IMG/VR virus record: IMGVR_UViG_2630968705_000016
Source of the DNA: a virus
Taxonomy: Duplodnaviria > Heunggongvirae > Uroviricota > Caudoviricetes
Length of the DNA: 26,472 nucleotides
Direction: 5' to 3' (one strand)
A program made the position numbers and the translations under genes. Shown here one piece after another: positions 1 through 23,377 of the stretch. Each line of letters starts with the position of its first letter. The stretch's first letter is position 1. A model generated the notes under the pieces. That model was not told the origin of the DNA and made no database searches. It saw only the letters and a program-made list of their open reading frames with translations.

Positions 1-555
1 ATGCTTATTGGCTATGTACGTGTGTCAACAAATGACCAGAACACAGATCTACAACGTAATGCGCTGAACTGTGCAGGATGCGAGCTGATTTTTGAAGACA
101 AAATAAGCGGTACAAAGTCCGAAAGGCCGGGACTGAAAAAACTGCTCAGGACATTATCGGCAGGTGACACTCTGGTTGTCTGGAAGCTGGATCGGCTGGG
201 GCGCAGTATGCGGCATCTTGTCGTGCTGGTGGAGGAACTGCGCGAAAGTGGCGTTAATTTTCGCAGCCTGACGGATGCTATTGATACCAGCACGCCGATG
301 GGGCGTTTTTTCTTTCATGTGATGGGTGCCCTGGCTGAAATGGAACGAGAACTGATTGTTGAACGGACAAAAGCTGGACTGGAGGCCGCTCGGGTGCAGG
401 GGCGAATTGGTGGGCGCCGCCCCAAACTTACACCAGAGGAATGGGCGCAGGCCGGGCGATTAATTGTATCAGGAGTTCCTCGCCAGAAGGTGGCTATTAT
501 CTATGATGTTGGTGTGTCAACTTTGTATAAGCGGTTTCCAGTAGGTGATAAATAG
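1..555 (+). CDS. pin: Serine recombinase, DNA invertase (Pin/Hin/Gin/Cin family)
   Basis: 184-aa ORF from ATG at 1. N-terminus MLIGYVRVSTNDQ with catalytic Ser context, VVWKLDRLGRS and C-terminal HTH (VSTLYKRF) match my recollection of Pin/Hin invertases nearly residue for residue. Confidence 0.9.
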   Translation: MLIGYVRVSTNDQNTDLQRNALNCAGCELIFEDKISGTKSERPGLKKLLRTLSAGDTLVVWKLDRLGRSMRHLVVLVEELRESGVNFRSLTDAIDTSTPMGRFFFHVMGALAEMERELIVERTKAGLEAARVQGRIGGRRPKLTPEEWAQAGRLIVSGVPRQKVAIIYDVGVSTLYKRFPVGDK

Positions 556-820
556 AACTAAAGAAAGTTCATAGGTAGGAGTATGCAATGACATATTGTT
601 TGAAATTTATACTATAAAATTAAACGATTAACAGTTTTATACTATATCAAAGCAGATTCAGGACATTTGAGTAGTGAGATAATCGCTTTATTATAGCATC
701 CATATTATGTCGAACATTGTTGCGAAGCCTCTGTAAGGTTAATGCTTGTTTTTATTATAACTATTTGATATGTTGAGTTTTAGATTGCAATATTAATGTC
801 AGTTTAGCGATAAAGGGGAG

Positions 821-1999
821 TTGATGAACAGTTCAGCATTTGTACTTGAAGATAAGAGAGTTGATTGTCTCTCTGTTATTCACACGACAAAATTATCAGA
901 GTATTTATTATTTGCTGAAAAAGCATATGAAGAGAAAGGTGGCATATATGGTCAAAGGGCTCCTCTTAAAACTAAAACTGCTCAAACTATTCGTGAGAGA
1001 ATGGTATCTGATATAATTGATGGGGCTGTTTTACCTCCAATAGTTATCGGAGTAATTGTTGATAATGATACTTATGAGCTTATTAGAAATGTTCGCGATG
1101 ATAAATCATTTGAAGATTTAAATAAAACTATTGATAAATCGTCTTTATCCATTATAGATGGTATGCAAAGAACTACAGCTTTTTTAGAGGCTGTAAAACA
1201 AAGTGAAGAGGTAAAAAATAAGACAATAAGGATAGAATATTGGTTTTCGAAAAGCATGAATAGCCTGATATACAGAATGTTAGTTCTGAATACAGGCCAA
1301 GTTCCATGGGATATAAAAAGGCAATTAGATACTATTTATGACTCTATAATCAAAGAGTTAAAAGAGTCTATACCTAATTTAGACATCAGACTTATTGGGC
1401 AGTCAAGCAGGAGAACGCAAGCAGGCCAATATCAAAGTAGTAAGTTAATAGAGTATTTTTTGTGTTTTTCATCCAGAAAGACTGACATAGACCTTAAAGA
1501 GAAAGTTTCAGAAGATTTTGCTCGCATGGATGCTATTGAGTCAACCTCAGATAATGACTTTTTATCTAAATTTAAATCAGTGCTTAAATTAATGGTTGAC
1601 TTAGATCATGAGTTTTCAAGATTCAAAGATGAGCAGCAGGAGGGGCGCATCAAAGTCGGTAAGGATATATTTACAAGTATTCCTGCTGGTGTAGGGTTTG
1701 TTGCAGCAGCTGCAACATATATTTATGGCCCTCCAGGATTCAAATCCACTAAAGAAGAAAGTGACAGGTGCTGTCAGGATCTTATTAAAAAAGTCTCTGG
1801 TTTAATTGATAAACTCAAAGATTTAAAGGAAAATGAGTTAGGGCTGTTTTTACAGTTTCCTCTTTTAAATGAAAAGTTGAGTGCCAGATCTAGTAAAATA
1901 GGTCAATATGAAAGGGAGTTTTATTATAAAGCTTTTGAAGCTTGTTTTAAATATATTGAAAGATTAGAAGATTTTGGACCATGTTGGCAGGCTAAGTAA
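821..1999 (+). CDS. Hypothetical protein with DGQHR/DUF262-like (ParB/Srx superfamily) motifs; candidate defence component
   Basis: 392-aa ORF in a strongly AT-rich block. RBS AAGGGGAG upstream (start could be the second ATG at 824). Motifs IYGQRAP, then PPIVIGVIV, then SIIDGMQRTTAF (nt 1157-1171) resemble the QR...DGQ(H/Q)R signature of DndB/DUF262 proteins. Stop overlaps the next start (TAATG at 1997-2001). Confidence 0.7.
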   Translation: MMNSSAFVLEDKRVDCLSVIHTTKLSEYLLFAEKAYEEKGGIYGQRAPLKTKTAQTIRERMVSDIIDGAVLPPIVIGVIVDNDTYELIRNVRDDKSFEDLNKTIDKSSLSIIDGMQRTTAFLEAVKQSEEVKNKTIRIEYWFSKSMNSLIYRMLVLNTGQVPWDIKRQLDTIYDSIIKELKESIPNLDIRLIGQSSRRTQAGQYQSSKLIEYFLCFSSRKTDIDLKEKVSEDFARMDAIESTSDNDFLSKFKSVLKLMVDLDHEFSRFKDEQQEGRIKVGKDIFTSIPAGVGFVAAAATYIYGPPGFKSTKEESDRCCQDLIKKVSGLIDKLKDLKENELGLFLQFPLLNEKLSARSSKIGQYEREFYYKAFEACFKYIERLEDFGPCWQAK

Positions 2000-3105
2000 T
2001 GGCAAGAATTAAAGAAAATATAAACTATATTTTTGATGCTATTTGCCATGCTGGTGGTGAAACTGCAACTAGAAAAAAAATGAAGCCGGCACCAGTGGAA
2101 CAAGAGGAAATGAATTGTTTCAAACGGTTAAAATTTAATAAGGGGGAGTCTTTTAGTATATTTAATGGTATTACTATTGCTCACTTCCAAGAAAATATAA
2201 AAGATGATAATGGTTCTGAAATAATTATTGATTATTTTGCGGTTAAAAATATCGCATCATCTGAATTTCAAAGTGAGCTTTATAACAATTATTTTAGTAT
2301 ATATGACTTAACTGAATCTTTTTTTGTTTTTCTTTGCCCTATTTTAAATTTAAAAGTTAAAGATGATATTTCGTCGCAAACTATTTCTAATGATCTGCTT
2401 TTCCAGCAAGAGGATCCTTTATATATAGGGCATAATATTTCTGAATTGATTAATTATTTTGAATCAATAACTATTTTTCGGTTGGAGGATTTATCTACAA
2501 ATTTTAATAACTCTTTTCTTTCTTGCGCGTATTATATACTTACTAGTTGCGAGACTTTTGTTACATTACCACTATCAAAAGCTACTGTTGATAAATTGAA
2601 AAATCTTTTCGTTTGTAATGAAAAAATTCCACAGGATAATATCTTTTTATCATTGACTTCATCGCATTTAAAGCATTGTTATCTCGAATTGTATAGGTGT
2701 ATTGAATGGTTGTATGTGATTCCTAGAAGCAGGAGATTAAAAGGTGTAATTCAATTCCCAAGGCCAGCATATGAGCTGGCTCTTCATTGTATTGATGAAC
2801 TATCTTGGCGTAGAAAAGAAGAGGATTCTTTAGCAAAAATTGTATCTGACGTATTAAAAAAAAATGAAACGCTAAGTTTTAAGTTGTTGGGATGTAAAAT
2901 GTTTTCTGAAGAAAACCTTAATTTTAATAATGTAGCAAAGCATTTATACGCAATACGAAATCAATTCGTTCATCAACTTGAAGCCAAAAGAGAAAAAGTT
3001 GTTAGTGATGATGATATAATAGATGCAATTGAAATAATTGCAGATATCGTCATTTCTGCATACGAGTTATATGATGCCGATATAATTGAATGGCAATGTA
3101 ATTGA
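1999..3105 (+). CDS. Hypothetical protein with C-terminal HEPN-like Rx4H motif (putative RNase effector)
   Basis: 368-aa ORF translationally coupled to the upstream gene, same AT-rich composition. Motif AIRNQFVH (R-N-x-x-x-H, nt 2956-2973) near the C-terminus fits the HEPN Rx4-6H signature. No other recognisable domain. Confidence 0.65.
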   Translation: MARIKENINYIFDAICHAGGETATRKKMKPAPVEQEEMNCFKRLKFNKGESFSIFNGITIAHFQENIKDDNGSEIIIDYFAVKNIASSEFQSELYNNYFSIYDLTESFFVFLCPILNLKVKDDISSQTISNDLLFQQEDPLYIGHNISELINYFESITIFRLEDLSTNFNNSFLSCAYYILTSCETFVTLPLSKATVDKLKNLFVCNEKIPQDNIFLSLTSSHLKHCYLELYRCIEWLYVIPRSRRLKGVIQFPRPAYELALHCIDELSWRRKEEDSLAKIVSDVLKKNETLSFKLLGCKMFSEENLNFNNVAKHLYAIRNQFVHQLEAKREKVVSDDDIIDAIEIIADIVISAYELYDADIIEWQCN

Positions 3106-3917
3106 ATTTTATATGTTGTGATTAATTAATCATCTAGTCACCCAATGAGTATTACAAAGTATATTTTATGCTGGAATGCAAATTGGGTGAGTTATTATAT
3201 AATGGTGATTGGTCATTAAGTGCTGTAGGGCATATATATTAAAAATAAATATGTCTATTTCTGGAAACTACAAAGTATTGGCAAGGTTTTATTATGCTAA
3301 AGGTGTTATTTTATTATTTTAAAATACCTTAGTGTCCATCGTTTATTTTTATTATAAATCAATCTTAAATTTTACAATGCTGATGTATTGCAATTAAAAA
3401 AATGGCTTAAGCTTATTTTTCTTGTTTTTGATATAAATATTAATGTTGTGTTTTTTTTAAAATAAACATTTAACTCATAACTATTATAGTTAATAAAAAG
3501 AAAATAATATTTTATTATATACTATTGAGTTAGTATTCCGTATTGGCGATTTAATTGAAAGATAACGAAATTCTTCCGCCACCGCTTTGAGTTGCGAGAA
3601 AAGTCATCTATTCGAATGCGTATTATGGAATCATGGTTTCATTAATGGTTATTCAGTAGAGAACCATCTTCATCTGGCACAAAATAACGATAGTTATGAC
3701 TGTCTACATCTCGGAAATATAATAATTTTTAATGCGACTTATTGCGGTTTCCTTTTCATATTACCTTGCAACGATCAGTTTTGTAGCTTATTTCTGCAAT
3801 AAAGTTATTTACAGTTTCGCGGTTTTTCTCTTGCATTTGTTCAGTAAAGCAACTTGCCAGCATACTGGACTGCACCTTAATCAGTTGGACGTCCAACTGA
3901 TTAAGGTGCATTTTTTT

Positions 3918-4399
3918 ATGGCAAAGCCAAAATATTCTCTCGAAACCAGTAATCATTATCTTGCCGGACATAATGGCGCACGTCGTATCGCTGAACGTTT
4001 TGGTGTTGAAGAAACATCAGTGCGACGCTGGGTAAGAGCCAGGCAACTCCACGGTATTGATGGTATTACATTGAAAAATGACCGTCACTCTCCTGAGTTT
4101 CGACTGACGGTTGTCCAGAGGGGTCTGAGTGAAGAACTTACCATGCGCGAGGATGCCGCACGGTTTAATATCTCAAATGAATCCGTTGTTAGGCACTGGG
4201 TGAAGATTTACAAAAACACTGGTGAAGAAGGACTTCTGAACATAAAACCAGGCCGGAGCAAGGACATGACAAAACCTCAAAAACACCTCCACTTACCGAT
4301 GCAGAACTGGAAAAGTTATCTCCCGAAGAACTGCGGACTCAACTCCGTTACCTTCGCGCAGAAAATGCCTATCTAAAAAAGCTGAAGGCCTTAGTTTAA
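3918..4399 (+). pseudogene. IS3-family transposase OrfA, frameshifted
   Basis: Starts MAKPKYSLETSNHYLAGHNGARRIAERFGV (HTH). The expected C-terminus ...ELRTQLRYLRAENAYLKKLKALV is readable only in a different frame from the N-terminal part, implying a frameshift near 4270-4300. Confidence 0.7.
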
Positions 4400-5266
4400 A
4401 GCGAGAAAAACGGGAGAAAGCCCGGATAATCAGTGAATTAAGGCTGAAGCATGCGCTCGGTGATCTTCTGCGTGCCGCGGGGATGTCCCGCAGTACGTGG
4501 TATCACAATATGAATGCCCTGAAGCGAGTGGACAGGCATGCCGGACTGAAAGACAAAAACAGAGAGATTTATCACTATCACAAAGGGCGTTATGGCTACC
4601 GCAGAATCACGCTCTCACTGGGAAACAGGGCTTGTTGGTAAACCATAAAACAGTGTAGCGGCTGATGGCAGAGCTGTCGCTCCGCTCTGTGATAAGGGTG
4701 AAGAAATATCGTTCTTGGAAAGGGGAAGTAGGCAAGGCTGCGCCCAACATCCTGAGCCGGAACTGTGGTGCAACGAAGGCCAACGAAAAATGGGTGACGG
4801 AAGTTACAGAATTCTCGGTACAGGGTAAAAAGCTGTACCTGTCGCCAGTTCTCGATCTGTTTAACCGGGAGATTATCTCCTACAGCCTGTCAGAAAGGCC
4901 GGTGATGTAGATGGTTAATACGATGCTGCACGATGCATTCCCAGTGATCGGCCCGGAGGATGCACTGTTGCTGCACACGGATCAGGGCTGGCAATATCGA
5001 ATGGCAGGCTATCAGGCAAAGTTAAAGGCTAAGGGAATGACACAAAGCATGTCGTGCAAGGGAAACTGCCTGGATAACGCAGTGATGGAGAACTTCTTCG
5101 GCACACTGAAATCGGAGTGTTTTTACCTGAACAGGTTCAGCGATCCAGATTAACTGAGGAAGGCTATAGAGGACTATATCCATTATTATAACAACGAGCG
5201 GATCAGCCTGAAATTAAAAGGCCTGAGTCCGGTAGAATACCGAATCCAGGCCCTGAAAACCGCTTA
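4381..5266 (+). pseudogene. IS3-family transposase OrfB (DDE integrase core), disrupted
   Basis: OrfB-like sequence (…WVTEVTEF…[23 protein letters not shown]…, …LLLHTDQGWQY…CLDNAVMENFFGTLKSE…) is split across frames, with a frame break near 4640 and in-frame stops at 4908-4910 (TAG) and 5151-5153 (TAA). Confidence 0.7.
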
Positions 5267-5438
5267 ATATGAGCTGTCCAACTTTATGGGGCAGTCCATA
5301 AGTGGGCTTCTATGTCACTAAAGAGCTGCGGCTCCTTTGCGTATCCTTTTTTGTCTCCTCACCGTCTGGTCGGTGTCTTACTTAGACTGCTAACTTCTTG
5401 TTTTTATTGGTGTTGTCCTTACACCGTCCAATCATGAT

Positions 5439-5466
5439 TGGTGGAGCTGGCGGGAGTTGAACCCGC
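5439..5466 (-). other. tmRNA (ssrA) 3'-end fragment, likely att-site remnant
   Basis: Minus strand reads GCGGGTTCAACTCCCGCCAGCTCCACCA, matching the 3' terminal 28 nt of E. coli ssrA as I recall it. Flanking sequence does not continue as ssrA. Confidence 0.6.
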
Positions 5467-5767
5467 AGACACGTCGTATGCAAGAACTTGCTGCGGCTGG
5501 ATGGTGGACTTTCGATAGTGCGAGTATTGAATGATTTCCATCTATTATAGATTTTACCGTATTTCGGCATGAATGAAACTGAATATCCTCCCACCGACCC
5601 TCCATGACTTTACACCACTGTCTCTGGGGCTGCTATGTGCCAGTAGAGGACGTTGCTAGTGTCAGCCTATGTTAATCAACAGGGAGCAGGTCACACTGTC
5701 GTCTCAGAATACCTAGCGCATAGGTCACACGAACTTCCAACTGTATTGCTTGTTTTCGTGGCTAAGC

Positions 5768-6907
5768 CTATTTTTGTTGATGATACCAATGCAACATCAT
5801 CCGGAGCTTCAATAGAGTTGTACTGTCATCATCCTCAGAACAAAAATTGTATCGCCCGCCTGAATATTCATTTAACTTGTCCAAGTAAAAGCCACCCATT
5901 GGGTCATATCTATCAGAGTGGAGCCAAGTAAACATTTTCTGAAGAACGTAATGCAGGGCATTTTTCGGAAGTGTTGAAATCAACACGCCATGCTTAGTTG
6001 CTAAATCCTCAATATTCATTTCCTGAAGATTATATCTAATCTCTACTGCAATTGGATGTAGTTTACTTAAAAATACGTCAGCTTCATCCTTGAGATGTGC
6101 CTCTTTAACATTCCCCTCGAACAACTTTATTAACTCTTCCACTTCCATTCGGTAATAATCGTTATCACCTCGCACCGCAACTTCTGAAAGAAGCAACTTT
6201 AACTCAGCATGAATGTTATCAGTAGACGGTATAATCTGTTTGGATAGGGTGCTGTAATGTTTTATACGGATTGCTATTACGGAACCCTTTAGGCTTGTTA
6301 GATATTTATACCTATCTTCAATATATGTAATTAGCTCATCGAATTTAATGCCGAAAATAACATCATCTTTCCCTGGCGTGTTGTTGTAAAGGCTTATAGT
6401 GAAATCATTTTCATTGAAAGCATGAAAATGAGGCCAGCTTGCAAACAGTCGCTCACCATCACTATTTTTAAGATTTGTAGGGTGAGCACCAAAGATAGCT
6501 CGAATACTCTTAAAGTATGCGTCATCATCCTCATGTGAAAGATAGGGCGTTTTATTCTTAAAGACATTCGTTGATTTCTTGAAAGGCCACCTCGCTAACT
6601 TATCATCACTCTCAATGATGCGGTGAAGCTGCTGCAACGCCTCCACAGCAATATCAATAGATGATATAAGGCAGTAAACCTGCATGGCCTTGACATCAAT
6701 ATCTTCCGACAGCTCAGGGAAGTTCATCAGATTGCGAACAGAAACGCTTATCCAATCCATGCACGAACAGATAGGGCTGAACTGGTTTTTACCATTTCTG
6801 TTTATGAAGTAGCTGTAAGCAAACTCCCCTTCATTAACCACATCTCGAAAATCAGTTATTAAAGTATCATCAATAGTTACACCAAAATCTGCCTTGGTCA
6901 TCTTCAT
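5768..6907 (-). CDS. Hypothetical protein (about 379 aa), AT-rich orphan gene
   Basis: Long minus-strand ORF. The six-frame track starts at a TTG (6922); the first ATG is at 6907 and a second at 6901. No clear SD. No domain recognised by eye. Confidence 0.75.
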   Translation of the reverse strand: MKMTKADFGVTIDDTLITDFRDVVNEGEFAYSYFINRNGKNQFSPICSCMDWISVSVRNLMNFPELSEDIDVKAMQVYCLISSIDIAVEALQQLHRIIESDDKLARWPFKKSTNVFKNKTPYLSHEDDDAYFKSIRAIFGAHPTNLKNSDGERLFASWPHFHAFNENDFTISLYNNTPGKDDVIFGIKFDELITYIEDRYKYLTSLKGSVIAIRIKHYSTLSKQIIPSTDNIHAELKLLLSEVAVRGDNDYYRMEVEELIKLFEGNVKEAHLKDEADVFLSKLHPIAVEIRYNLQEMNIEDLATKHGVLISTLPKNALHYVLQKMFTWLHSDRYDPMGGFYLDKLNEYSGGRYNFCSEDDDSTTLLKLRMMLHWYHQQK

Positions 6908-7301
6908 GGAAATCACTTTCAAATCAGCACACTTAGAGGTTGATTGTGACCGTTATCATAGGCAAAAACAATTCAGTAGGTTGACCAGCCCCCCCCCATA
7001 ACGCAAAATTGCTCGATTTAAGTATGCATTCCAACTTCCGCTCCTCGCTCATAACAGACATTCACTACAGTTATGGTAGAAGGTATGCATGCTGGGTGGG
7101 GAAAGTATGAAGGAAAAGAAGGCTGCTGTGTCGTTTGACATCACTGCAATCTTCTTATTGGTTATGCGGGTCGTAGTGGGACAAAACTGAGACACATAAG
7201 GCCTAGCAATGGCTTGCAAGGCTTTACATGTTTTGATGTGGTGGGACTTGTGAGCGCAGTGTTGATGGGGTAATGCTTTGAATTAGAAGCGGATTCTTAT
7301 A

Positions 7302-7347
7302 ATTCGTAATGCGAAGGTCGTAGGTTCGACTCCTATTATCGGCACCA
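7302..7347 (+). other. Partial tRNA-Thr(CGU) (thrW-like) 3' portion; integrase att core
   Basis: ATTCGTAATGCGAAGGTCGTAGGTTCGACTCCTATTATCGGCACCA matches the anticodon loop through the CCA end of E. coli tRNA-Thr(CGU). The 5' half (GCCGATATAGCTCAG...) is absent upstream. Confidence 0.7.
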
Positions 7348-7364
7348 TTCAAACATCTCCCCAA

Positions 7365-7450
7365 GTCTACTAAAGTCTTTCAAAACCCCTTATAATCCGC
7401 GTATTAAAGCCCCGTTCGTCTTTTGACGTCTACTAAAGTCCCTCAAAATC
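7365..7450 (+). promoter_or_regulatory. Two direct repeats (GTCTACTAAAGTCyyTCAAAA), putative integrase arm-type binding sites
   Basis: Near-identical 21-23 bp copies at 7365-7386 and 7428-7450, between the tRNA fragment and the integrase start. Confidence 0.4.
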
Positions 7451-7512
7451 TACGGTCAGATGGGGGTACTTATGGGGGTATTTGCTGTTCGGTTTAGTGG
7501 AGGTACCCCCAA

Positions 7513-8727
7513 GTGAAACTCAATGCCCGTCAAATAGACACAGCCAAGCCAAAAGAGAAGGCTTACAAGCTGGCCGATGGTGGCGGTTTGTATCTCTTGG
7601 TAAAACCTAATGGAGGTAAATACTGGCGACTTAAATATCGTGTAGCTGGTAAAGAGAAGCTATTGGCACTAGGTGTGTATCCTGAGGTTACTCTAGCCGA
7701 TGCTCGGGCAAAACGAGAAGATGCGAAAAGAGGTATCGCTGGTGGTATCGATCCGATGGAAGCGAAACGAGAGGAAAAGATTGCCCGGGAAACGCAGTTA
7801 AACAACACCTTCAAAGATATTGCCCTTGAGTGGCACAGCAGCAAATTAAAAAAATGGTCTGCTGGTTATGCTTCAGACATCCTCGAAGCCTTCAACAAAG
7901 ATGTGTTCCCTTACATTGGCAAAAAACCAATCGCCGAAATCAAACCACTTGAACTTCTGAATGTGCTGCGGCGCATCGAGGGGCGCGGTGCGACAGAAAA
8001 AGCCAAAAAAGTGAGGCAGCGGTGCGGGGAAGTTTTCCGTTATGCAATAGTCACTGGTCGCGCAGAGTATAACCCTGCACCAGACCTTACTAGCGCGATG
8101 CAAGGCCATGAATCTAATCATTACCCTTTCCTTACGACCAAAGAATTACCTGATTTTTTCAAGGCATTGTCCAGTTACTCAGGAAGCGCATTGGTTGTTA
8201 TGGCGGCTCGTCTACTGATTATCACCGGCTTGCGAACTGGCGAACTACGTGGCGCATTATGGGATGAAATTGATTTCAACAAGGCTATATGGGAGATACC
8301 CGCTTCACGTATGAAAATGCGGCGGCCTCATATTGTGCCATTGTCTGAGCAGGCTCTTTCGCTTATTGGGAAGATTAGAGAAATAACAGGCAATTACCCT
8401 CTTATGTTTCCCGGGCGCAATGATCCAAGGAAAACAATGAGTGAGGCCAGCATAAACCAAGTGTTTAAGCGCATTGGCTACGCTGGACGTGTAACTGGTC
8501 ATGGGTTCCGACACACTATGAGCACGATTTTGCATGAGCAGGGCTATAACACCGCGTGGATAGAAACGCAGCTCGCTCACGTTGATAAGAACTCAATTCG
8601 TGGCACATACAACCATGCGCAATATCTGGATGGACGGCGGGAGATGCTTCAATGGTATGCCGACTATATGGATTCTCTCGAGCATGGCGGAAATGTGGTG
8701 CATATGGTGTTTGAAAAACACGCATGA
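7513..8727 (+). CDS. int: Tyrosine recombinase, P4-type phage integrase
   Basis: 404 aa, GTG start with GGAGG RBS. N-terminal signature (KLNARQIDTAKPKEK...DGGGLYLLVKPNGGKYWRLKYR) typical of P4-family integrases. Catalytic elements GLRTGELR, HGFRHT and RGTYNHA (R, HxxR, Y) present. Confidence 0.93.
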   Translation: MKLNARQIDTAKPKEKAYKLADGGGLYLLVKPNGGKYWRLKYRVAGKEKLLALGVYPEVTLADARAKREDAKRGIAGGIDPMEAKREEKIARETQLNNTFKDIALEWHSSKLKKWSAGYASDILEAFNKDVFPYIGKKPIAEIKPLELLNVLRRIEGRGATEKAKKVRQRCGEVFRYAIVTGRAEYNPAPDLTSAMQGHESNHYPFLTTKELPDFFKALSSYSGSALVVMAARLLIITGLRTGELRGALWDEIDFNKAIWEIPASRMKMRRPHIVPLSEQALSLIGKIREITGNYPLMFPGRNDPRKTMSEASINQVFKRIGYAGRVTGHGFRHTMSTILHEQGYNTAWIETQLAHVDKNSIRGTYNHAQYLDGRREMLQWYADYMDSLEHGGNVVHMVFEKHA

Positions 8728-9154
8728 AACAACTGGACAAGTATACAGAGGTTTACTAAAGTATAGGGGAGTAGATTGATAAAAACTCACAGAGGATTGC
8801 TATTTAACAGTTAGCCCTGGAGAAGGGCAATCGCTCTTTTATAAACGAAGGTGTATTGAGCCTTCTACGCTGCTGAAAAGCGGAATGTTCTTTAACAGGC
8901 TTTGGCGCTGACAAAGCGCAATTGTTCTTTAAAACTACTGGATGTCACGCCTAATAGCGTGATCCTGCCGAAATGCAGGGTAGCTCTACCCTTGTGGAGC
9001 AAACAAACCAAAACAATCTGACTATCTTTTATAAAAGACCGCAATATGTTTTTCATATTGTGGTCTTTGGCGTATTCGACATTTGACGCAAATAAAACTC
9101 TCGCCATTCGTTGCAGGAGGGGGTTATTGCGTCATTAGTACAGGATATTAATAA

Positions 9155-9358
9155 ATGGCTAATTACAATTCATTAATTCGTCTCTCTGAAGTTCAAAGGC
9201 GAACTGGTTATAGCAAAGCATGGATTTATCGTCTTATTAGTCAGGGGAGGTTCCCTAAACAGGTAAAAATTGGAAGTCGGGCAATTGCTTTTGTTGAGTC
9301 TGAAATAGATGAATGGATTGAGAAGTGTATATTAGAATCTAGAGACGAGGTGGCCTGA
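9155..9358 (+). CDS. alpA: AlpA-family transcriptional regulator / excisionase-like protein
   Basis: 67 aa; IRLSEVQRRTGYSKAWIYRLISQGRFPKQVKIG...ESEIDEWI matches the AlpA/Vis HTH pattern. Confidence 0.85.
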   Translation: MANYNSLIRLSEVQRRTGYSKAWIYRLISQGRFPKQVKIGSRAIAFVESEIDEWIEKCILESRDEVA

Positions 9359-9789
9359 TGGAAAAGAAAAACCGCCCATTACAGGCGGCTAATTCAGATA
9401 TTCGCGTATCTGATGTTACGCCCCTGACAAAATCCCTTCAAGCACCAAAGCGCACACCGAAAAAGCATCGTGCCAGAGTCTATATGCTGCGTACTGGTAT
9501 AGAGGGATGGACAGAAAATGACATTCTTCGCTACTGCCGTCTGTCTTCTGGTCGTAACTATGCAACAGAGTTAGAACGCCAGCTTGGAATCACTCTGGAG
9601 CGTATCGACGAAAAGAATCCTGATGGTATCGGAACACACCTTCGCTACCGTTTCTCCTGCCGTGGTGATGTTCTGAAAGTGATCACTCATGTTAACCATC
9701 TTGCGAACATAAATGATCACAACGGACTTTCTCAGCAGGAAATTGCCGACATTCTGAAACTCTACCCGAACGCGTTTAACGCCGCCTAA
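9358..9789 (+). CDS. Hypothetical phage-island protein
   Basis: 143-aa ORF whose ATG overlaps the alpA stop by 1 nt; no domain recognised. Confidence 0.65.
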   Translation: MEKKNRPLQAANSDIRVSDVTPLTKSLQAPKRTPKKHRARVYMLRTGIEGWTENDILRYCRLSSGRNYATELERQLGITLERIDEKNPDGIGTHLRYRFSCRGDVLKVITHVNHLANINDHNGLSQQEIADILKLYPNAFNAA

Positions 9790-9801
9790 CGGAGACTGAA
9801 A

Positions 9802-10635
9802 ATGAACATCGAAAAAAGCAGATTAATTTCTGAGGCCGCCCCTCATCTGAACGCCTCTCTGGGCACAATTAACGGTAATGAATTTGCCGCAATTGTCCCG
9901 GTTATTCCTGGTCATATCGGTGGGCGTGAAACCAATATTGTTAGCGCAAAAGCGTTACACAAAGCGTTGGGCGTGGGAAAAGACTTCTCTACATGGATCA
10001 CTGATCGCATCTCTGAATATGACTTCACCATTGGGCACGATTACTCAGTCCATAAAACAATTTCCCCAAATTTGGGGAAAAGCCCGAATGACGCGGCTTA
10101 CAGCAAGATTAAGCAGTCTGGCAGACCCGGCAAAGACTATCTGTTAAGTGTCGGAATGGCGAAAGAACTGGCAATGATCGAACGCAATGATCAGGGGCGC
10201 GCTATCCGCCGTTATTTCATCCAGTGCGAGGAAGAATTACAGCGTAGCGTGCCTGAAATCGCCGCCCGCTATCGTCGCCAGCTAAAAGCCCGTATCAGTG
10301 CCGCAAACAACTTTAAGCCAATGTGCGATGCGCTGAATATGGCCCGTGCCGAGATGGGTAAAACGACGCAGCAACACCACTACACAAACGAGAGCAATAT
10401 GATTTCTCGTATCGTTCTTGGTGGGCTAACTGCTAAACAGTGGGCGCGGATAAATGGCTATTCTGGCGAACCTCGCGACCATATGAACGCAGAACAGCTT
10501 GAGCACCTCTCATATCTCGAAAGCACCAATATCACGTTAATTGATATGGGCATGGAATATGAGCAGCGCAAAGGAGAACTCACCCGCCTGTCGCAACGCT
10601 GGCTCGCCAAGCGTCTGGAGGCGGTCCATGTTTAA
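9802..10635 (+). CDS. Phage antirepressor-like protein (KilAC-type C-terminal domain)
   Basis: 277 aa, GGAGA RBS. The segment DYLLSVGMAKELAMIERNDQGRAIRRYFIQCEE resembles the KilAC antirepressor domain. Confidence 0.8.
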   Translation: MNIEKSRLISEAAPHLNASLGTINGNEFAAIVPVIPGHIGGRETNIVSAKALHKALGVGKDFSTWITDRISEYDFTIGHDYSVHKTISPNLGKSPNDAAYSKIKQSGRPGKDYLLSVGMAKELAMIERNDQGRAIRRYFIQCEEELQRSVPEIAARYRRQLKARISAANNFKPMCDALNMARAEMGKTTQQHHYTNESNMISRIVLGGLTAKQWARINGYSGEPRDHMNAEQLEHLSYLESTNITLIDMGMEYEQRKGELTRLSQRWLAKRLEAVHV

Positions 10636-10807
10636 GCCGACAGGAACACCACAACCTCAAAAACGCTACAAAGATGCCCACGGAGCACTCGTTACTGTCG
10701 AAAGCGTGTCTCACAACCGAGTGACGTTTTATCGCGACGGGTATCAATCGCCATGCGTACAACCGCTGGCGCGTTTCATGAAGGAGTTCGCGGAGGTTAA
10801 CCAATGA
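10628..10807 (+). CDS. Small hypothetical protein (59 aa), possibly DUF4222-like
   Basis: ATG at 10628 overlaps the upstream stop (ATGTTTAA). Sequence MFKPTGTPQPQKRYKDAHGALVTVESVSHNRVTFYRDGYQSPCVQPLARFMKEFAEV. Confidence 0.45.
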   Translation: MFKPTGTPQPQKRYKDAHGALVTVESVSHNRVTFYRDGYQSPCVQPLARFMKEFAEVNQ

Positions 10808-11241
10808 TACCCATCCAGAAGAAGACATTTTCACTGGCTGGTATGTCGCCAAAATCCAGAAATATGACGGCAAAGTCAGGCATTAATACAGCAGATACAA
10901 GCAAAGTTTATCATTTGCTGGTGGCCGGAACGGATGCCTTAACCATACCAGAAATCTCGGGCGATGATATTAGCCTTGAGAAGGTCAGCGGCTGCGCCAG
11001 AAAATTTCTGGTCGTAGATGATGTCTTCCGCTCGTGTAGTGACTCCACAAAAACATTCGTCCACGCGCGTGACGTTAACGAAATGAGCGCGATGTACTGT
11101 GCTTCTGGTTCTTCCAATAGTGAGTTTTCGGAGTCCATAAAAAAGAGCTTGCCGTTATGCGGCAACACGGTTTATGGTTATAAGGCACCTCATAAAACGG
11201 GTGCCGGGTTTCGCAGCCCGGAAATGTACGAGGCGACACAT

Positions 11242-11263
11242 GACGCGCCGAGCGTCTTTTTTT
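11242..11263 (+). terminator. Rho-independent terminator-like hairpin plus T7 run
   Basis: GACGC-GCCGA-GCGTC hairpin (11242-11256) followed by TTTTTTT (11257-11263). Lies inside the annotated 355-aa ORF 10804-11871. Confidence 0.5.
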
Positions 11264-11465
11264 GTGCCGTTAGCCAGACTCACACTTTTTTCAGTGATGT
11301 GGTTATAATCCGCGTCGCTTGCAAAATTATGGTGGGCTGGACAGGGCAGCCGAAAGGCTGGCCGGTTTCCTTGTACGCCGGTACTGCGAACTCTGTTCAG
11401 TCCACCACCAGCGAGTTTCGCAGCTCCGGTGGTGGGAAGAATTCCCAGTACAAGGAGGCTGCCAC

Positions 11466-11660
11466 ATGCTGGCTACTACCCCTACCCAAAAACCGCAATT
11501 TATCTGGATTATCGCCGCAGTTCGCCGCGATTGCCCGACAATTACCGCCAAAATTCATCATATTGCTGCCGAGTCTGAACGCGATGCTCGCCGTTCTCTG
11601 GTGCGCGATCACGTCTGCTTTTTTGCTGGTCGTATCCGCATGGAGGTGGCACATGATTAA
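11466..11660 (+). CDS. Small hypothetical protein (64 aa)
   Basis: ATG preceded by AAGGAGG RBS; codon usage (ctg, gcc, cgc) is much more gene-like than the overlapping frame of the long ORF. MLATTPTQKPQFIWIIAAVRRDCPTITAKIHH... Confidence 0.55.
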   Translation: MLATTPTQKPQFIWIIAAVRRDCPTITAKIHHIAAESERDARRSLVRDHVCFFAGRIRMEVAHD

Positions 11661-11871
11661 AACCTACGATGTGCATATGGATCCCCTCGAACGCACAAGC
11701 CAGATCATCACACTGACAGAAGTGATTAACGACATTCTGGTGAGCAACTCTCCCTCACGAGACGAAAGACTGAAGGCGTTACTCGCGATATTGGATCTCG
11801 CCGTTCGTGACGTTCATTTCCTGCTGGAAGGTGGCGAAATGCCAGGAAAAACGGGGGCAACCAATGAATAA
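11655..11871 (+). CDS. Small hypothetical protein (72 aa)
   Basis: Internal ATG of the long ORF with GGAGGTGG RBS; overlaps the upstream stop (ATGATTAA). MIKTYDVHMDPLERTSQIITLTEVINDIL... Confidence 0.5.
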
Positions 11872-12058
11872 CTCAATTAATGCCCCTCGACTTACGTCCG
11901 CACTTCAATTAATCGAGCAAGCAGCGGCTGTCCTGGTTGCTGTCAGTCTTTCGGCTGAAGAAATGGACGCTGCTGATGTCGTGGATGCGATTAAAGCGTG
12001 CTCATCTTTGGTTAACGATGCTCGTGCAGAGCTGGTAATTCTTGGTGGTGAAAAATGA
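11864..12058 (+). CDS. Small hypothetical protein (64 aa)
   Basis: ATG at 11864 overlapping the upstream stop; MNNSINAPRLTSALQLIEQAAAVLVAV... The track ORF begins further upstream at 11807. Confidence 0.5.
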   Translation: MNNSINAPRLTSALQLIEQAAAVLVAVSLSAEEMDAADVVDAIKACSSLVNDARAELVILGGEK

Positions 12059-12318
12059 ATATCAACTTAATTTATCGTCATCCGTGTGAGCTGGAAATTG
12101 AATCATTGCTGAGCCGTGAAGAGCCATATCCAGACACATTCACTCTTGCAGATCGCACGACTGAACGGCTTACCAGGGCGCGCACAGGTCTGGTTCATGT
12201 GATGAATGAGATTCTTCCATCGGTGGGAGGGGAACAGGCGACAGTAATCACTAGCTGGCTACAAAAAGTTACCTCTCTGATAGATATCAGTTTAATCGAT
12301 GCGGAGAGTGCGAAATGA
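12055..12318 (+). CDS. Small hypothetical protein (87 aa)
   Basis: Start overlaps upstream stop (ATGA); part of a coupled run of small genes. Confidence 0.55.
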   Translation: MNINLIYRHPCELEIESLLSREEPYPDTFTLADRTTERLTRARTGLVHVMNEILPSVGGEQATVITSWLQKVTSLIDISLIDAESAK

Positions 12319-12536
12319 CCAACATCCAGCTCATTGAAGCACAATGTCGCATCGAACAGGTTCAGACTGTTTTAGGGTTCTGGCTTGAAGGGGCCAGCCC
12401 CAGCAACAGAGACAAGTTAATGATTGGCGCGGTTATGTCACTGCTCAATGGCGTACCAGAAGCTATTCAGGAAGCAGACGAATTGTTGGGCAAATATGAG
12501 TTACAGAATCATTCAGGCGAGGCGAAACATGAATAA
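12315..12536 (+). CDS. Small hypothetical protein (73 aa)
   Basis: ATGA overlap with the upstream gene; same operon. Confidence 0.55.
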   Translation: MTNIQLIEAQCRIEQVQTVLGFWLEGASPSNRDKLMIGAVMSLLNGVPEAIQEADELLGKYELQNHSGEAKHE

Positions 12537-13131
12537 TTTCTTAACTTTCCATGCAGAAGCAACGCCTGACGGCGTAAACATCATGTACCGCAGCAACGAT
12601 GGCATGACAGAACGCGTTGAGGCCGTCTCATATATTGATGCCGTAAATCGTCTGGATGCCGGGGATTATGACGATAAACCAGATGAAGGTATGTCAATAC
12701 ATCTCGCTATAGCCGATGGCGGCAACCAGGGATATTTCGATTACACATCACAGCATAACGTCATTATGTGGAGATGGCTGATCGCAACAGTATTCATGCT
12801 GGAAATGAGAGAGGAAAACGGCACTGTCAGCATCATTGATGATACTGGCAACCCTTCCGAAGTGGCTGTTTATTCCAACGGCATCGTCGCCATGCCGCTG
12901 TATCCAGTAGCAGAGCGCCTCGCTATGGCAAACAACATTGAGGGCGCGATGATAGAACGTTTTGGCATCGAGTCTGGCACAGAACGCGCCATCATTTTCT
13001 ACAGAGCCATGATGGATGTGGAACAAGGAGCACTGACTCCATTTGGTCGTGAAACGCTTGCTGAACTTCACAACAGCTTTATAGCTGAACTGAATGAAAA
13101 CGGCATGCCAGCGGAACCAGTGACGCACTGA
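12526..13131 (+). CDS. Hypothetical protein (201 aa)
   Basis: ATG at 12526 overlapping the upstream stop (ATGAATAA). The track ORF begins upstream at 12424, but that would overlap the previous gene out of frame. Confidence 0.6.
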   Translation, partial: NMNNFLTFHAEATPDGVNIMYRSNDGMTERVEAVSYIDAVNRLDAGDYDDKPDEGMSIHLAIADGGNQGYFDYTSQHNVIMWRWLIATVFMLEMREENGTVSIIDDTGNPSEVAVYSNGIVAMPLYPVAERLAMANNIEGAMIERFGIESGTERAIIFYRAMMDVEQGALTPFGRETLAELHNSFIAELNENGMPAEPVTH

Positions 13132-13141
13132 GGATGGAACC

Positions 13142-13483
13142 ATGATTACTAAAAATTTCCGACTGAATGCGCTGGCAAATAAGTATGCGTCGGCACTGTA
13201 TAACCACATTACCTCCACCAGCGGCGGGGACTATTTCATGGTTGATGCGGACGGCGAGGCCGTCCGTGTGGAAATCGTCAATGGAGTAAAAGGCGTTCGC
13301 AGCCTGATCGATAGCTACACACTGGCAGCCATGAAAGTGTTCTACCCGCAGTGGGAAACCGTGGGGATCGAGCTTCTTGATCGTTGCGTCACTAAGGACG
13401 GATTGACTGACGTCGGGCGTGAGATATGGCAAAGCATGGTTAATGACATGGGCGCAACTGTAGCGGGAGGTTCTCATGCGTGA
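13142..13483 (+). CDS. Hypothetical protein (113 aa)
   Basis: ORF with GAGGATGG context upstream; the stop overlaps the next start. Confidence 0.6.
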   Translation: MITKNFRLNALANKYASALYNHITSTSGGDYFMVDADGEAVRVEIVNGVKGVRSLIDSYTLAAMKVFYPQWETVGIELLDRCVTKDGLTDVGREIWQSMVNDMGATVAGGSHA

Positions 13484-13847
13484 AAATGCAGAAATGGCGC
13501 TTAGCTCCGCAATCGGAGAGCAGGTGGCAAAGATTGCTGGTGCTGTGTGGATTCATAACCTTCATTCTACTGGTGAAGAGAAAATGGCAATTCAGACGCC
13601 AGAGGGACGCATCATTACTACATCTCTGAAGCCGTCAGATGTTTGTGATCTGATTTGCGCATTCATGTACCCAGCAATGAGGACTGCCCACGGCGATAAG
13701 TGGAAACTTGCGACAACCGCTGAATTTGATATGTGGCTAAACAATGATGGCATGCTGACTGATTACGGAATAACCAAGTGGCAGATGCTGGTTAGCCATA
13801 TCGCAAACGCTATAGACCACGTGGGGTACGGTGATGCGAAACATTGA
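13476..13847 (+). CDS. Hypothetical protein (123 aa)
   Basis: ORF with GGGAGG RBS upstream; 3' end overlaps the primase start. Confidence 0.6.
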   Translation: MRENAEMALSSAIGEQVAKIAGAVWIHNLHSTGEEKMAIQTPEGRIITTSLKPSDVCDLICAFMYPAMRTAHGDKWKLATTAEFDMWLNNDGMLTDYGITKWQMLVSHIANAIDHVGYGDAKH

Positions 13848-16590
13848 TCTTATCCGTCAGGTTATCAGTGCGTCTGAAAACAACTGGCCTCATGTGCTGG
13901 GCTGCCTGAACATAAATGTCCCTGACTCTCCGCGCCGTCATGCTCCCTGCCCTGCATGTGGGGGCAAAGATCGATTCCGGTTCGATGACAACGGGCGCGG
14001 TAGCTTCATCTGTAATCAGTGCGGCGCTGGTGATGGGCTGGATTTAATTAAACGCGTAAATAACTGCGACACAACAGAGGCGGCGCTTCTTGCCGCTGAT
14101 GTTCTGGGTATTGATTACCGGACAACGGAAACACCAGAAGCCACCAGCCAGAAACGGGAACAACTGGAAACCGAGCGCCAGCGACGCGAACAGGAGCGCC
14201 TGAAAAGGGCAGAGAAGGACGAACAACAAAGACGGGATACGTTTTCCCGTCAGTTTGATGACATGCGCAGAAAGGCTGTAAACGGCAAATCTGATTATCT
14301 GGTTGCGAAAGTGGTAGGTGATTTTACATTCCCCGTGTTGCCCGATGGATCTCTGTTGCTGGCGCTGGTGGATAAATCCGGCGCAGTCACAGCAGCACAG
14401 ACTATTACCTCACATGGTGAAAAAAGACTCCTGACAGGTTCAGCAAAGCGGGGGGCATATCACGCCATAAACGCACCAGAAACAACACAGAGCATCTTAA
14501 TCGCAGAAGGGCTGGCAACGGCATTATCTGCCCATTTAATTCGTCCAGAGGCGCTGACAGTGGCGGCGATTGATGCCGGGAACCTGTTATATGTCGCCCA
14601 GGTACTGCGGGATAAATATCCTTCAGCACAAATCATCATTGCTGCGGATAACGACCACAGCGAAGGAAGACAAAACACGGGGAGAATAGCAGCAGAAAAA
14701 GCAGCTTTATCTGTTTCTGGATGGGTGGCATTACCCCCGACAGATCACAAAGCAGACTGGAATGATTACCACCAAAAACACGGCATTAAATGCGCCACAG
14801 AAGCGTTCAATAAGTCAATGTACCAACCACAGGGTAATGGCGTGAAACAGGAGCCACAGACCATTGAGGGAAGCGATTTTAAGGTTATGGATACCGACCC
14901 ACTGAAACCAAGAATAGAAAGCCGCGAGGATGGTATTTATTGGGTATCTCCGAGAGCTGACAGCCAGAGTGGAGAAATCATCAATAACGAAAGCTGGTTA
15001 TGTTCTCCGTTAAGCGTTATCGGTACTGGCAGAGACGATAAAGACCAGTATCTCATTCTTCGCTGGCTGTCGTTTGGTTCTGAAACGCCGACAACCGCTG
15101 CCATTCCACTGGCTGATATTGGTGAACGTGAAGGATGGCGCACACTTAAAGCTGGTGGGGTAAATGTCACGACCAAAAGCAGCCTCAGAGCAATACTGGC
15201 AGACTGGCTACAACGCAGTGGCTCTCGTGAATTGTGGCGTGTTGCTCATGCCACTGGCTGGCAATGCGGAGCGTACATCATGCCTGATGGGGAAATCATC
15301 GGAACACCTGAAAATCCTGTGCTGTTCAGCGGGAGAAGCTCAGCCGCAGCCGGATATACCGTCTCAGGGAGCGCGAAAAGCTGGCGTGATAACGTGGCGC
15401 GTCTGGCCTTTGGTAACTATTCAATGATGACCGGGATCGGCGCAGCACTGGCAGCGCCATTGATTGGGCTGGTGGGCGCTGACGGGTTCGGCATTCATTT
15501 CTATGAGCAGTCGAGCGCAGGTAAGACCACCACGGCAAACGTGGCGAGCAGCTTATACGGCAACCCTGATTTACTGCGGCTGACGTGGTACGGAACCGCG
15601 CTGGGGCTGGCAAATGAGGCCGCCGCCCACAATGACGGACTAATGCCGCTTGATGAAGTTGGTCAGGGCGCTGATCCTGTCAGCGTTTCACAGTCTGCCT
15701 ATGCGTTATTTAACGGTGTAGGGAAACTGCAAGGCGCTAAAGATGGTGGAAACCGGGATCTAAAACGTTGGCGTACAGTGGCAATCAGCACCGGAGAAAT
15801 GGATTTAGAAACATTTATCGCTACTTCCGGGCGAAAAACCAAAGCCGGGCAACTGGTGCGACTGCTGAATATTCCGTTGAGTAAAGCAGTACGCTTTCAC
15901 GATTACCAGAACGGAAAACAGCACGCAGACGCACTGAAAGACGCTTACCAGCATCACCACGGCGCGTCCGGGCGTGAGTGGATTAAATGGCTGGCAGACC
16001 ACCAGCAACAGGCTATTAAAACCGTTCGTGATTGCGAAAGCAGATGGAGAAGCCTGATCCCATCCGATTATGGTGAGCAGGTTCACCGTGTAGCCGCGCG
16101 ATTTGCCATTCTGGAGGCCGCATTGTTGTTAGGCGAGGTTGTAACAGGCTGGGATGCTCAGACATGCCGTGATGCGATACAGCACAGCTATAACGCATGG
16201 TTGCGTGAGTTCGGCACAGGTAACAAAGAGCATCAGCAGATTATTGAACAAACGGAGGCATTTCTTAATGCCTATGGGCTTAGCCGTTTTGCACCATTTT
16301 CATACAGCCCGGCAGATTTGCCCATCAAAGATTTAGCCGGATACCGTCAGCGTGGAGAACATGACGAAAGCCCAATGATTTTCTACACATTCCCGGCCAC
16401 ATTTGAAAAGGAGATCGCATGTGGTTTCAACGCAAAACAGTTTGCTGAAGTGTTGAAAAAAGCCGGGATGCTAACCCCACCAAACAGCGGTCGTGGATAC
16501 CAAAGAAAATCACCACGTATTCAGGGACGACAAATAAACGTTTATGTACTCAATTACCAGCCAGGAGATTATAACTCATCTGAAGAATGA
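13831..16590 (+). CDS. Primase-helicase (P4 alpha-like: zinc ribbon + Toprim primase + P-loop helicase)
   Basis: 919 aa. CPACGG...FICNQCG zinc-binding motif; Toprim-like AEGLATA and IIIAADNDHSEG (DxD); Walker A SSAGKTTT and Walker B-like LMPLDEV. Start could be the GTG at 13831 or the ATG at 13834. Confidence 0.9.
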   Translation: MMRNIDLIRQVISASENNWPHVLGCLNINVPDSPRRHAPCPACGGKDRFRFDDNGRGSFICNQCGAGDGLDLIKRVNNCDTTEAALLAADVLGIDYRTTETPEATSQKREQLETERQRREQERLKRAEKDEQQRRDTFSRQFDDMRRKAVNGKSDYLVAKVVGDFTFPVLPDGSLLLALVDKSGAVTAAQTITSHGEKRLLTGSAKRGAYHAINAPETTQSILIAEGLATALSAHLIRPEALTVAAIDAGNLLYVAQVLRDKYPSAQIIIAADNDHSEGRQNTGRIAAEKAALSVSGWVALPPTDHKADWNDYHQKHGIKCATEAFNKSMYQPQGNGVKQEPQTIEGSDFKVMDTDPLKPRIESREDGIYWVSPRADSQSGEIINNESWLCSPLSVIGTGRDDKDQYLILRWLSFGSETPTTAAIPLADIGEREGWRTLKAGGVNVTTKSSLRAILADWLQRSGSRELWRVAHATGWQCGAYIMPDGEIIGTPENPVLFSGRSSAAAGYTVSGSAKSWRDNVARLAFGNYSMMTGIGAALAAPLIGLVGADGFGIHFYEQSSAGKTTTANVASSLYGNPDLLRLTWYGTALGLANEAAAHNDGLMPLDEVGQGADPVSVSQSAYALFNGVGKLQGAKDGGNRDLKRWRTVAISTGEMDLETFIATSGRKTKAGQLVRLLNIPLSKAVRFHDYQNGKQHADALKDAYQHHHGASGREWIKWLADHQQQAIKTVRDCESRWRSLIPSDYGEQVHRVAARFAILEAALLLGEVVTGWDAQTCRDAIQHSYNAWLREFGTGNKEHQQIIEQTEAFLNAYGLSRFAPFSYSPADLPIKDLAGYRQRGEHDESPMIFYTFPATFEKEIACGFNAKQFAEVLKKAGMLTPPNSGRGYQRKSPRIQGRQINVYVLNYQPGDYNSSEE

Positions 16591-16615
16591 GCTTCTTCAT
16601 GTGCGTAGAAAAGGT

Positions 16616-16726
16616 GTTGGTTCAGTTGGTTCAGTTGGTTCAATTTGTAAAGAGTATTGTTTTATAATGATTTTATTCTTTTTATTGAACCAACACTGAA
16701 CCAACAACACGGTATTTTGAACCAAC
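16616..16726. repeat. Iteron cluster 1 (putative replication origin)
   Basis: Three perfect tandem GTTGGTTCA 9-mers (16616-16642), an AT-rich spacer, then three TGAACCAAC inverted copies (16686-16694, 16697-16705, 16718-16726). Begins 26 bp after the primase stop. Confidence 0.75.
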
Positions 16727-17046
16727 ACAATGTGACTGAATTGATGCGCACAACACCTGGCTGGCATCAGAGAGTGTTTTACGAGACTTTCGTAAAATCC
16801 TGTGTACAAGGGCGTGACGTTTTTGAAAGTGAGCACTACGAAATTTTCGTAGTTCAAAAAACAGCCTCTGAGAAGTTGTTATGCCTGTTCAGCAAACCAT
16901 CCGCATAGCTGATCGCGAATCAAATTACCAATGGAGCCAGAAGCAAGGGCAGAACTGAAAAGCGCCTGCCGTGAAGAGTAATGCGACACCATAAATATAG
17001 TTTTTAGAGTCCATAAAAAACCTGTCAAAACCTGACACACAGAACG

Positions 17047-17080
17047 ATGCCACCAGCTACTGAGCGGTGGCATTTTTTTG
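17047..17080 (+). terminator. Rho-independent terminator
   Basis: Perfect 8-bp stem ATGCCACC/GGTGGCAT with an 11-nt loop, followed by TTTTTTT (17074-17080). Confidence 0.7.
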
Positions 17081-17336: not shown

Positions 17337-17352
17337 AAATGGATGGCATCGC

Positions 17353-23370: not shown

Positions 23371-23377
23371 CTAATAA

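Follow-up and report, generated by a model that had tools for sequence, protein, structure and literature searches.

Does a short piece of the tmRNA gene ssrA lying inside a prophage region mark the end of an island that integrated there, or has it arrived as part of something else? The question is raised by the DNA analysed here, a stretch of 26,472 nucleotides from a virus of the class Caudoviricetes (the window), in which a sequence-only reading had picked out a 28-nt copy of the tmRNA 3' end and taken it for the distal junction of a CP4-57-type island integrated at ssrA. We conclude, with a probability of roughly 0.8, that the 28-mer and the 142 nt next to it are instead a non-functional relic of a phage attachment site, the core and P' arm (O-P') from an LLS-like lambdoid attP, carried inside a different prophage that is integrated at thrW.

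The copy lies at 5439-5466 on the minus strand, its (+)-strand reading being TGGTGGAGCTGGCGGGAGTTGAACCCGC. In alignment it agrees at 28/28 positions, with zero mismatches, with the 3'-terminal 28 nt of ssrA as annotated in E. coli AVS0453 (L003 6140-6502, minus strand), confirming the exact minus-strand copy that had been recognised from the letters, and it forms the core (O) of an ssrA-type phage att site. Read on the minus strand it holds the entire T-arm (GCGGG-TTCAACT-CCCGC), the 3' acceptor strand and the ACCA end. It occurs once in the window, none of 100 shuffles gave a match with up to three mismatches allowed, and the feature annotated as 'tmRNA pseudogene' in phage LLS (L013 6143-6181) matches it as well. 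The remainder of ssrA is missing here, as had been supposed: ARAGORN found zero tRNA or tmRNA genes over the window, the Rfam scan of the window at the gathering score gave no tmRNA match, and an E-value scan for the Rfam tmRNA recovered the 17-nt T-arm only, at 16.3 bits against a gathering score of 47. These results rule out an intact or partial tmRNA or tRNA gene, and the full tRNA-like domain, the tag reading frame and the pseudoknots that go with ssrA are all lacking from the feature. The proposed check, alignment with E. coli ssrA, returned the 28-mer and also homology that the earlier reading had overlooked, extending 142 nt past the ssrA 3' end (5438 to 5297); window 5297-5466 aligns with AVS0453 L003 5998-6167 at 93.5% identity (E = 8e-70). 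The extra 142 nt of similarity make the feature about 170 nt long, instead of 28, and we call this whole length the block.

To see what the block could bound, we consider the locus in which it lies. Window 1-7353 has its nearest relative, at 99.7% identity, in strain 2017.20.01CC (L001), where its counterpart is the right end of a ~41-kb prophage. This prophage begins at the tRNA-Thr gene thrW with an adjoining tyrosine integrase, proceeds from lambdoid early genes to an HK97-type head, a Mu-like tail, pinE and a thrW repeat, and terminates just ahead of yagP'-paoD. All close relatives have the order proA-thrW...yagP'-paoD, and the locus is hence thrW rather than ssrA. The thrW repeat of the window, found by alignment at 7302-7347 (+), consists of the final 46 nt of thrW and serves as attR of the prophage and attL of the island that follows; its match to the tRNA-Thr at L002 8971-9046 begins at 9001. 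It is the partial tRNA-Thr that had been noted some 1.8 kb from the 28-mer, and it is real. Homology to L001 and to phage phi458 stops at 7353 and homology to L002 begins at 7302, with window 7302-26472 being 99.995% identical to a thrW island of avian pathogenic E. coli (APEC) E19025. Besides its P4-type integrase, that island has C4/isrK RNAs, a TOPRIM-DUF927 primase and ejection proteins like those of P22. From these alignments, two thrW-targeting elements, the prophage and then the P4-type-integrase island, stand in tandem with the 46-nt thrW repeat between them. The stack of integrations suggested by the sequence-only reading therefore exists insofar as two elements are stacked, but both target thrW, and the ssrA fragment forms no local junction between them.

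The sole integrase in the window, a P4-type tyrosine integrase at 7513-8727 (+) with Arm-DNA-bind_3, Phage_int_M and Phage_integrase matches, comes after a thrW fragment and belongs to the second island, separate from the relic; its region is 100% identical to the APEC E19025 thrW island. Within the same island, an isrK RNA (69 bits) adjoins a C4 antisense RNA (81 bits) at 11185-11412 (+), upstream of or within an 'ash family' gene and beside an antA/antB antirepressor, a set that looks like the c4-ant immunity module of P1/P7 type placed in a P4-type-integrase island. Further along, 13831-22521 encodes the TOPRIM-DUF927 primase, DNA-ejection proteins like those of P22 and a lytic transglycosylase; neither head nor tail genes are seen. 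An inverted repeat of ~120 nt (16609-16729 and 24792-24901, 80% identity, from L002 self-matches) brackets the ejection-protein module.

The ssrA fragment is thus internal to the first prophage, 1.85 kb from that prophage's thrW attR, in a right end ordered pinE, Dazbog, IS3 remnant, ssrA block (5297-5466), a lambdoid element, a 384-aa open reading frame and the thrW repeat. The pinE-type DNA invertase at 1-555 (+), which equals L001 pinE 14702-15256, forms the left edge of a variable cargo slot. Between pinE and the relic the cargo is a Dazbog defence system at 821-3105 (+), with DzbA at 821-1999 and DzbB at 1999-3105 (PADLOC 1.6e-54 and 1.3e-07) and additional weak matches to GmrSD_N and HEPN_Apea; in other copies the same slot holds restriction-modification genes with a GIY-YIG nuclease, an ATP-dependent nuclease, a DEAD-box helicase or a SMEK-domain protein. 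The 384-aa frame at 5768-6922 (-) is part of a thrW attP-side module common to phi458 and has no match in Pfam, PADLOC or PHROG. We considered whether it might be a degenerate ssrA-type integrase, and rejected this on the lack of those matches and of recombinase domains. Its product looks soluble, and the frame adjoins the thrW attR and shares 99.5% DNA identity with phi458. Phages of the SfV/P22 type that integrate at thrW often hold lysogenic-conversion genes at this position.

If the locus does not explain the fragment, a phage that uses ssrA may. In the free lambdoid phage LLS (PQ299149.1) this 170-nt block recurs at 88% identity between the invertase/cargo region and a hyp-integrase-excisionase region, and the depositors of the phage annotated it as 'tmRNA pseudogene' and attP. 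Integration of LLS into the ssrA 3' end was deduced from a 29-bp identity, and its Int is only 17% identical to the IntA of CP4-57 (PMC12315714). In AVS0453, an LLS-like prophage occupies ssrA itself: its left part reads smpB, ssrA, block, RE, MTase, GIY-YIG, tfa and stf, and its far end int, hyp, an ssrA' of 27 nt with a second copy of the block, and then glaH. We noticed that LLS-type attP regions (L013 6001-6181; AVS0453 L003 5998-6167 and L008 39533-39701) have ~170 nt in common with the host, compared with the published 29 bp. Since the ssrA 3' end, the 142 nt and the terminator are all common to phage and host, the prophage is bounded by direct repeats of 170 nt, and in LLS-type phages the block would provide the host with a replacement ssrA 3' end and terminator. 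Distinct ssrA-targeting elements bring distinct downstream flanks and terminators, of which we found three types (L042-L047), one of them that of CP4-57-type elements.

The matches to the LLS attP and to the AVS0453 prophage bear out the idea that the 28-mer derives from the att site of an ssrA-targeting element. Judged by sequence comparison, the block in the window appears to be the core plus the cargo-side arm (O-P') of such an attP, equivalent to an attL junction and not to an attR; the homologue of the ssrA-downstream region at 5297-5438 (-), delimited by alignment, corresponds to the P' arm. Like the attP of LLS and AVS0453, it has an ssrA 3'-end core, of ~28-29 nt, with a terminator arm of ~142 nt to the right of tail-fibre/invertase cargo, although its hairpin is cut by an insertion sequence (IS). 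The two differ on the other side of the core, where LLS and AVS0453 have the hyp-integrase-excisionase arm and a functional site, whereas in the window that arm (hyp, int, xis) is absent beside the core, an element of the lambda b region stands in its place, an LLS-type integrase is missing and the host prophage uses thrW. With the integrase-side arm replaced by this element and the 384-aa frame, the feature is a half-site relic and not a functional attP.

The 142-nt arm also bears on whether the block came from a phage or from the bacterial chromosome. Sequences of this kind are found 3' of ssrA, or of the attR of an ssrA island, in ~4900 of 5426 complete E. coli genomes. The arm is 92-94% identical to phage-borne copies (AVS0453 attL and 504239) and 85-87% identical to native ones (the flank of the K-12 CP4-57 attR and the distal copy of AVS0453), while arm and block are 86-88% identical to the LLS attP. 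The assignment to a phage arm draws on these modest differences and on the near-identity between KKa014 and AVS0453 described below, the block being 85-94% identical to both classes and bearing no character diagnostic of either.

At its far end the arm stops at the right half of a terminator hairpin, GTGGGCTTC. Intact copies have the hairpin AAAAAGCCCGC-ATAA-GCGGGCTTTT, and homology in the window stops in its loop, into which a remnant of an IS3-family element has inserted. This remnant spans ~1433 bp at 3866-5298 (+) and has the ends TGGACTGCACC...GGGGCAGTCCA; the PGAP annotation of L001 calls it 'IS3 family transposase, frameshifted; internal stop'. In length and in having a hairpin loop as its target it may resemble IS1397. 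The triplets flanking it, TAC and TAA, show no clear target duplication, and the DNA to its left is AT-rich and unrelated to the other half of the hairpin. Both observations point to a rearrangement at the IS3 remnant, and they rule out a plain insertion with the rest of the terminator lying beyond the IS. Terminator prediction in the window gave none at the halved hairpin.

On the other side of the core, the block is fused directly to a lambdoid 'right-end element' (5467-5654, +; alignment, 80%) that is homologous to lambda 24162-24352, in the b region, and that opens with the hairpin CCGCAG...CTGCGG. The element is present in 5385 of 5426 E. coli genomes, at a median of 3 places each, and usually sits between tail-fibre/invertase/cargo genes and the attR of lambdoid prophages, as in K-12 Qin, the O157 prophage at ssrA and the IAI39 prophage at icd. 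Native copies start (A)AAACCGCAGACACG, right after tfa or pin genes, and the start (A)AAACCGCAGACACGTCG is a hairpin immediately 3' of the tfa stop codon. The element may be a late-operon terminator plus linker. Further copies occur at L001 29016-29102, L009 2501-2592, L010 5001-5090 and L011 5001-5171; some 90-190 nt are conserved, one location is between ykgJ and ecpE, and PGAP sometimes labels the element as a 'capsid protein' fragment. Upstream of the Qin copy there is a possible decayed ssrA core (AGTTGAAAAACCGCAG), a very weak resemblance. The element is not the integrase arm of the AVS0453 phage, an identity that was ruled out when that arm (L008 38674-39532) proved unrelated. Phage phi458 has a truncated invertase, the element, a 379-aa frame and the thrW attP, without any piece of ssrA, and window 5460-7353 is 99.5% identical to phi458 L012 6001-7889. 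The window thus contains a hybrid, in which an ssrA-type O-P' has been joined to a thrW phage's own right-end module.

How the two halves meet can be read from 30 copies of the junction. A native element starts AAAACCGCAGACACG, against a hybrid reading of GAGTTGAA(A/C)CCGCAGACACG. In 22 of the 30 copies the junction reads GAGTTGAAACCGCAG, that is, ssrA through the end of the T-loop and then the native start of the element; the other 8, which form the clade of the window, read GAGTTGAACCCGCAG, giving the perfect 28-mer. The fusion falls within a microhomology of 7-8 nt (GAACCCGC versus AAAACCGC), GAA(C/A)CCGC, at the boundary of the T-loop and the 5' half of the T-stem. In the real attR of AVS0453, ssrA identity stops at 27 nt, the same point as the hybrid junction. 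Integrases that target the T-loop form a recognised class (PMC1762012, citing Williams 2002).

The same fusion is found in KKa014 at thrW, in 504239 at thrW beside a CP4-6-like island and in K-15KW01 at prfC. KKa014 has the RE/MTase/GIY-YIG cargo of AVS0453 and a block 99.3% identical to it, but is located at thrW and has the block fused to the element. Retrieval with the junction pattern gave 26 IMG/VR contigs that carry it, and among complete E. coli genomes 275 of 5426 (~5%) contain a site that covers 80% or more of window 5300-5600. An identical junction in thrW and prfC prophages and in IMG/VR contigs means that it was inherited with phage and not made locally. The neighbours of the 30 copies fall into 14 unrelated clusters to the left of the block and 16 beyond the element. 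In 17 of the 26 IMG/VR contigs a pin homologue is found a few kb leftward from the relic, and many contigs have the thrW attR region on its right. This layout would make block and element together a conserved anchor between variable cargo slots.

Another way to view the relic is through its decay. The perfect 28-mer is kept in the 8 copies of the window clade, and the remaining 22 have substitutions or deletions, among them a 1-nt deletion, a 3-nt deletion, a loss of 9 nt, an insertion and, in K-15KW01, heavy decay. Because the retrieval pattern fixed part of the T-arm, diversity there is biased, and the informative comparison is that between the acceptor part, which the pattern did not fix, and the flank; these have diversities of 0.26 and 0.256. 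With a flank divergence of ~6.5%, zero changes in 28 nt would be expected with P ~0.15, and the perfect 28-mer of the window is unremarkable. The same chance of ~15% leaves some room for a residual function in the window's lineage.

Four other explanations have to be weighed against an attP relic. The fragment might, as the sequence-only reading held, be a displaced piece of ssrA forming the attR at the far end of a local CP4-57-type island within an integration stack. The exact ssrA 3' end in the 28-mer and the presence of two stacked elements agree with this, as does K-12, where the attR of CP4-57 (between ypjF and ypjA) consists of an orphan ssrA 3' fragment followed by a flank of the same type as the 142 nt, at 90% identity over window 5302-5453. 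The context nevertheless refutes it. The locus is thrW, with proA, thrW and paoD in the relatives, and not ssrA, so the fragment cannot be the distal junction of an ssrA island integrated here; there is no ssrA, smpB or IntA-like integrase nearby; and the fragment is internal to a thrW prophage, with the same junction recurring at prfC. On the island side of the core there is the b-region element and no integrase arm, the arm that is present being of LLS/lambdoid type, and the downstream flank differs at CP4-57-type junctions. The CP4-57 attR was formed in situ at ssrA by the P4-type IntA, retains only ~17 nt of ssrA, with a 1-nt deletion, and has CP4-57 DNA on its island side. Of the marks of such an in-situ attR, the window feature thus has the ssrA identity and neither the ssrA locus with its smpB partner nor the integrase arm with IntA, and we give this explanation almost no credence. 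Alternatively, an ssrA prophage could have excised aberrantly, in the manner of specialised transduction, taking the host's ssrA 3' end and flank with it, and the module could later have been swapped into thrW phages. A flank found in ~4900 genomes is host-like DNA, and an IS and a rearrangement adjoin the block. However, a captured attR should have the integrase-side arm next to the core, where the b-region element is found instead; the flank is nearer to the phage-borne copies than to the native ones; and LLS already holds the whole 170-nt block in a normal attP, which makes aberrant excision unneeded. We consider this route very unlikely.

The other two explanations grant the block a present function. 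The 28-nt core and P' arm could be an active site, either a secondary, attB-like landing pad or an attP in trans, enabling LLS-type insertion or cargo exchange. A core matching at 28/28 here and in 7 other copies, with the T-loop and both halves of the T-stem, speaks for it, and so do a junction at precisely the point where the att identity of a real attR stops and the near-identical cargo and block in ssrA- and thrW-integrated prophages. Set against these are the mutations in the 28-mer of 22/30 copies, with an acceptor part that evolves like the flank, and the truncation of the core annotated for the LLS attP, TGAACCCGCGCCCGTAATTC, of which 9 of the 20 nt precede the cut. P-arm scans showed no LLS-type prophage nested at a relic: an IMG/VR scan for reciprocal or nested junctions with the LLS P-arm pattern gave 0 matches, and the AVS-type P-arm pattern gave 6, all of them ordinary attR with a full core and none a reciprocal junction. 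Homologous recombination through the 170 nt would in any case account for the sharing of cargo without Int, and an active site strikes us as distinctly improbable. It is also unlikely, if slightly less so, that the block is kept at the level of the family by a predicted bidirectional terminator, which would insulate leftward cargo from the late operon and the slot and would be broken in the window. The block of every copy ends exactly at the hairpin AAAAAGCCCGCATAAGCGGGCTTTT, with everything beyond it differing, and it is a constant anchor amid highly variable neighbours; but the IS has cut the window's hairpin in half, with no terminator predicted there, and the conservation is no greater than would be expected of a recombination anchor.

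Thus, we return to the relic of an LLS-type attP and to how it might have formed. An LLS-like lambdoid phage that integrates at the ssrA 3' end would be the origin of the 170-nt block, and the host prophage, integrated at thrW by its own integrase, carries that block as a passenger in its cargo region. A single old recombination event would have made the hybrid junction, swapping the integrase-side arm for the common lambdoid b-region element by fusion inside the short microhomology. On one route, an LLS-type Int would have inserted its phage into a pseudo-att site at the opening hairpin of the element within a prophage already present, after which homologous recombination between the tail-fibre/invertase modules of both phages would have deleted the DNA between them. 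The other route would be microhomology-mediated illegitimate recombination between two phages. The junction, as far as its sequence goes, fits the Int-mediated and the illegitimate route alike; the Int route would also account for a duplication seen in KKa014 and AVS0453, where the first ~37 nt of the element recur after tfa. The junction would later have spread by homologous recombination, for which the 170-nt block and the element offered conserved anchors around a slot of varying cargo. The copy in the window probably does nothing, its terminator having been destroyed by the IS3 remnant. More speculatively, the Int route can be taken as the whole account: an ssrA-specific LLS-type phage would have been inserted by Int at the hairpin that ends the late operon of a thrW prophage, the deletion would have grafted its cargo, and the 170-nt half-site would since have served as portable homology, even as a residual landing pad. 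We regard this version as tentative, and rather doubtful.

Much of this is already known in kind. Displaced and phage-borne tRNA/tmRNA fragments are familiar, and LLS itself bears the 'tmRNA pseudogene' annotation; displaced tRNA/tmRNA fragments at island ends are reportedly a theme of the work of Williams from 2002/2003 ('Traffic at the tmRNA gene', 2003). Fragments of these genes that mark the ends of islands, tandem arrays included, have been described with Islander (PMC4383910). The thrW fragment at 7302-7347 is a textbook case of this type in a tandem array. The ssrA fragment resembles the Islander type in being a 3' fragment of the target gene that starts from a stem-loop boundary and was left by tyrosine-integrase recombination, but differs in that it is off its target locus, bounds no element here and travels in another phage. 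The layout around it also resembles the lambda b region and the lambdoid moron and defence hotspots, with the same position after stf/tfa/pin and before attR and with conserved linkers around variable cargo, except that here one linker is the fossil att half-site of a phage with a different integration specificity. In K-12, a pinH remnant 3' of the CP4-57 attR and ypjA (L004 821-988) is 84% identical to window 124-263, within pinE. From the position of the pinH remnant, the DNA 3' of the CP4-57 attR may be what is left of an older prophage arranged in this way too (ssrA, block, cargo, pin). In the literature searched we found no description of this particular hybrid junction or of its spread as a cargo-slot anchor.

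Taken as a whole, the feature is ordinary debris of mosaic phages and not the product of local ssrA-type integration. It carries a caution for annotation, in that orphan 3' fragments of tRNA and tmRNA genes are routinely taken as island boundaries, and here the ssrA relic is a passenger from elsewhere; with the relic recurring in ~5% of complete E. coli genomes, tools that find boundaries by pairing such fragments could be misled. For the phages themselves, it documents an exchange of modules between temperate phages that target ssrA and temperate phages that target thrW, and it marks the right-hand edge of a variable, defence-bearing slot (pin, cargo, relic). Should the half-site indeed act as portable homology, Dazbog, restriction-modification and similar defence cargo would be exchanged through it between phages of differing integration specificity, and should the junction have been made by an integrase at a pseudo-site in a prophage, it would be a concrete case of integration of a phage into a prophage moving cargo.
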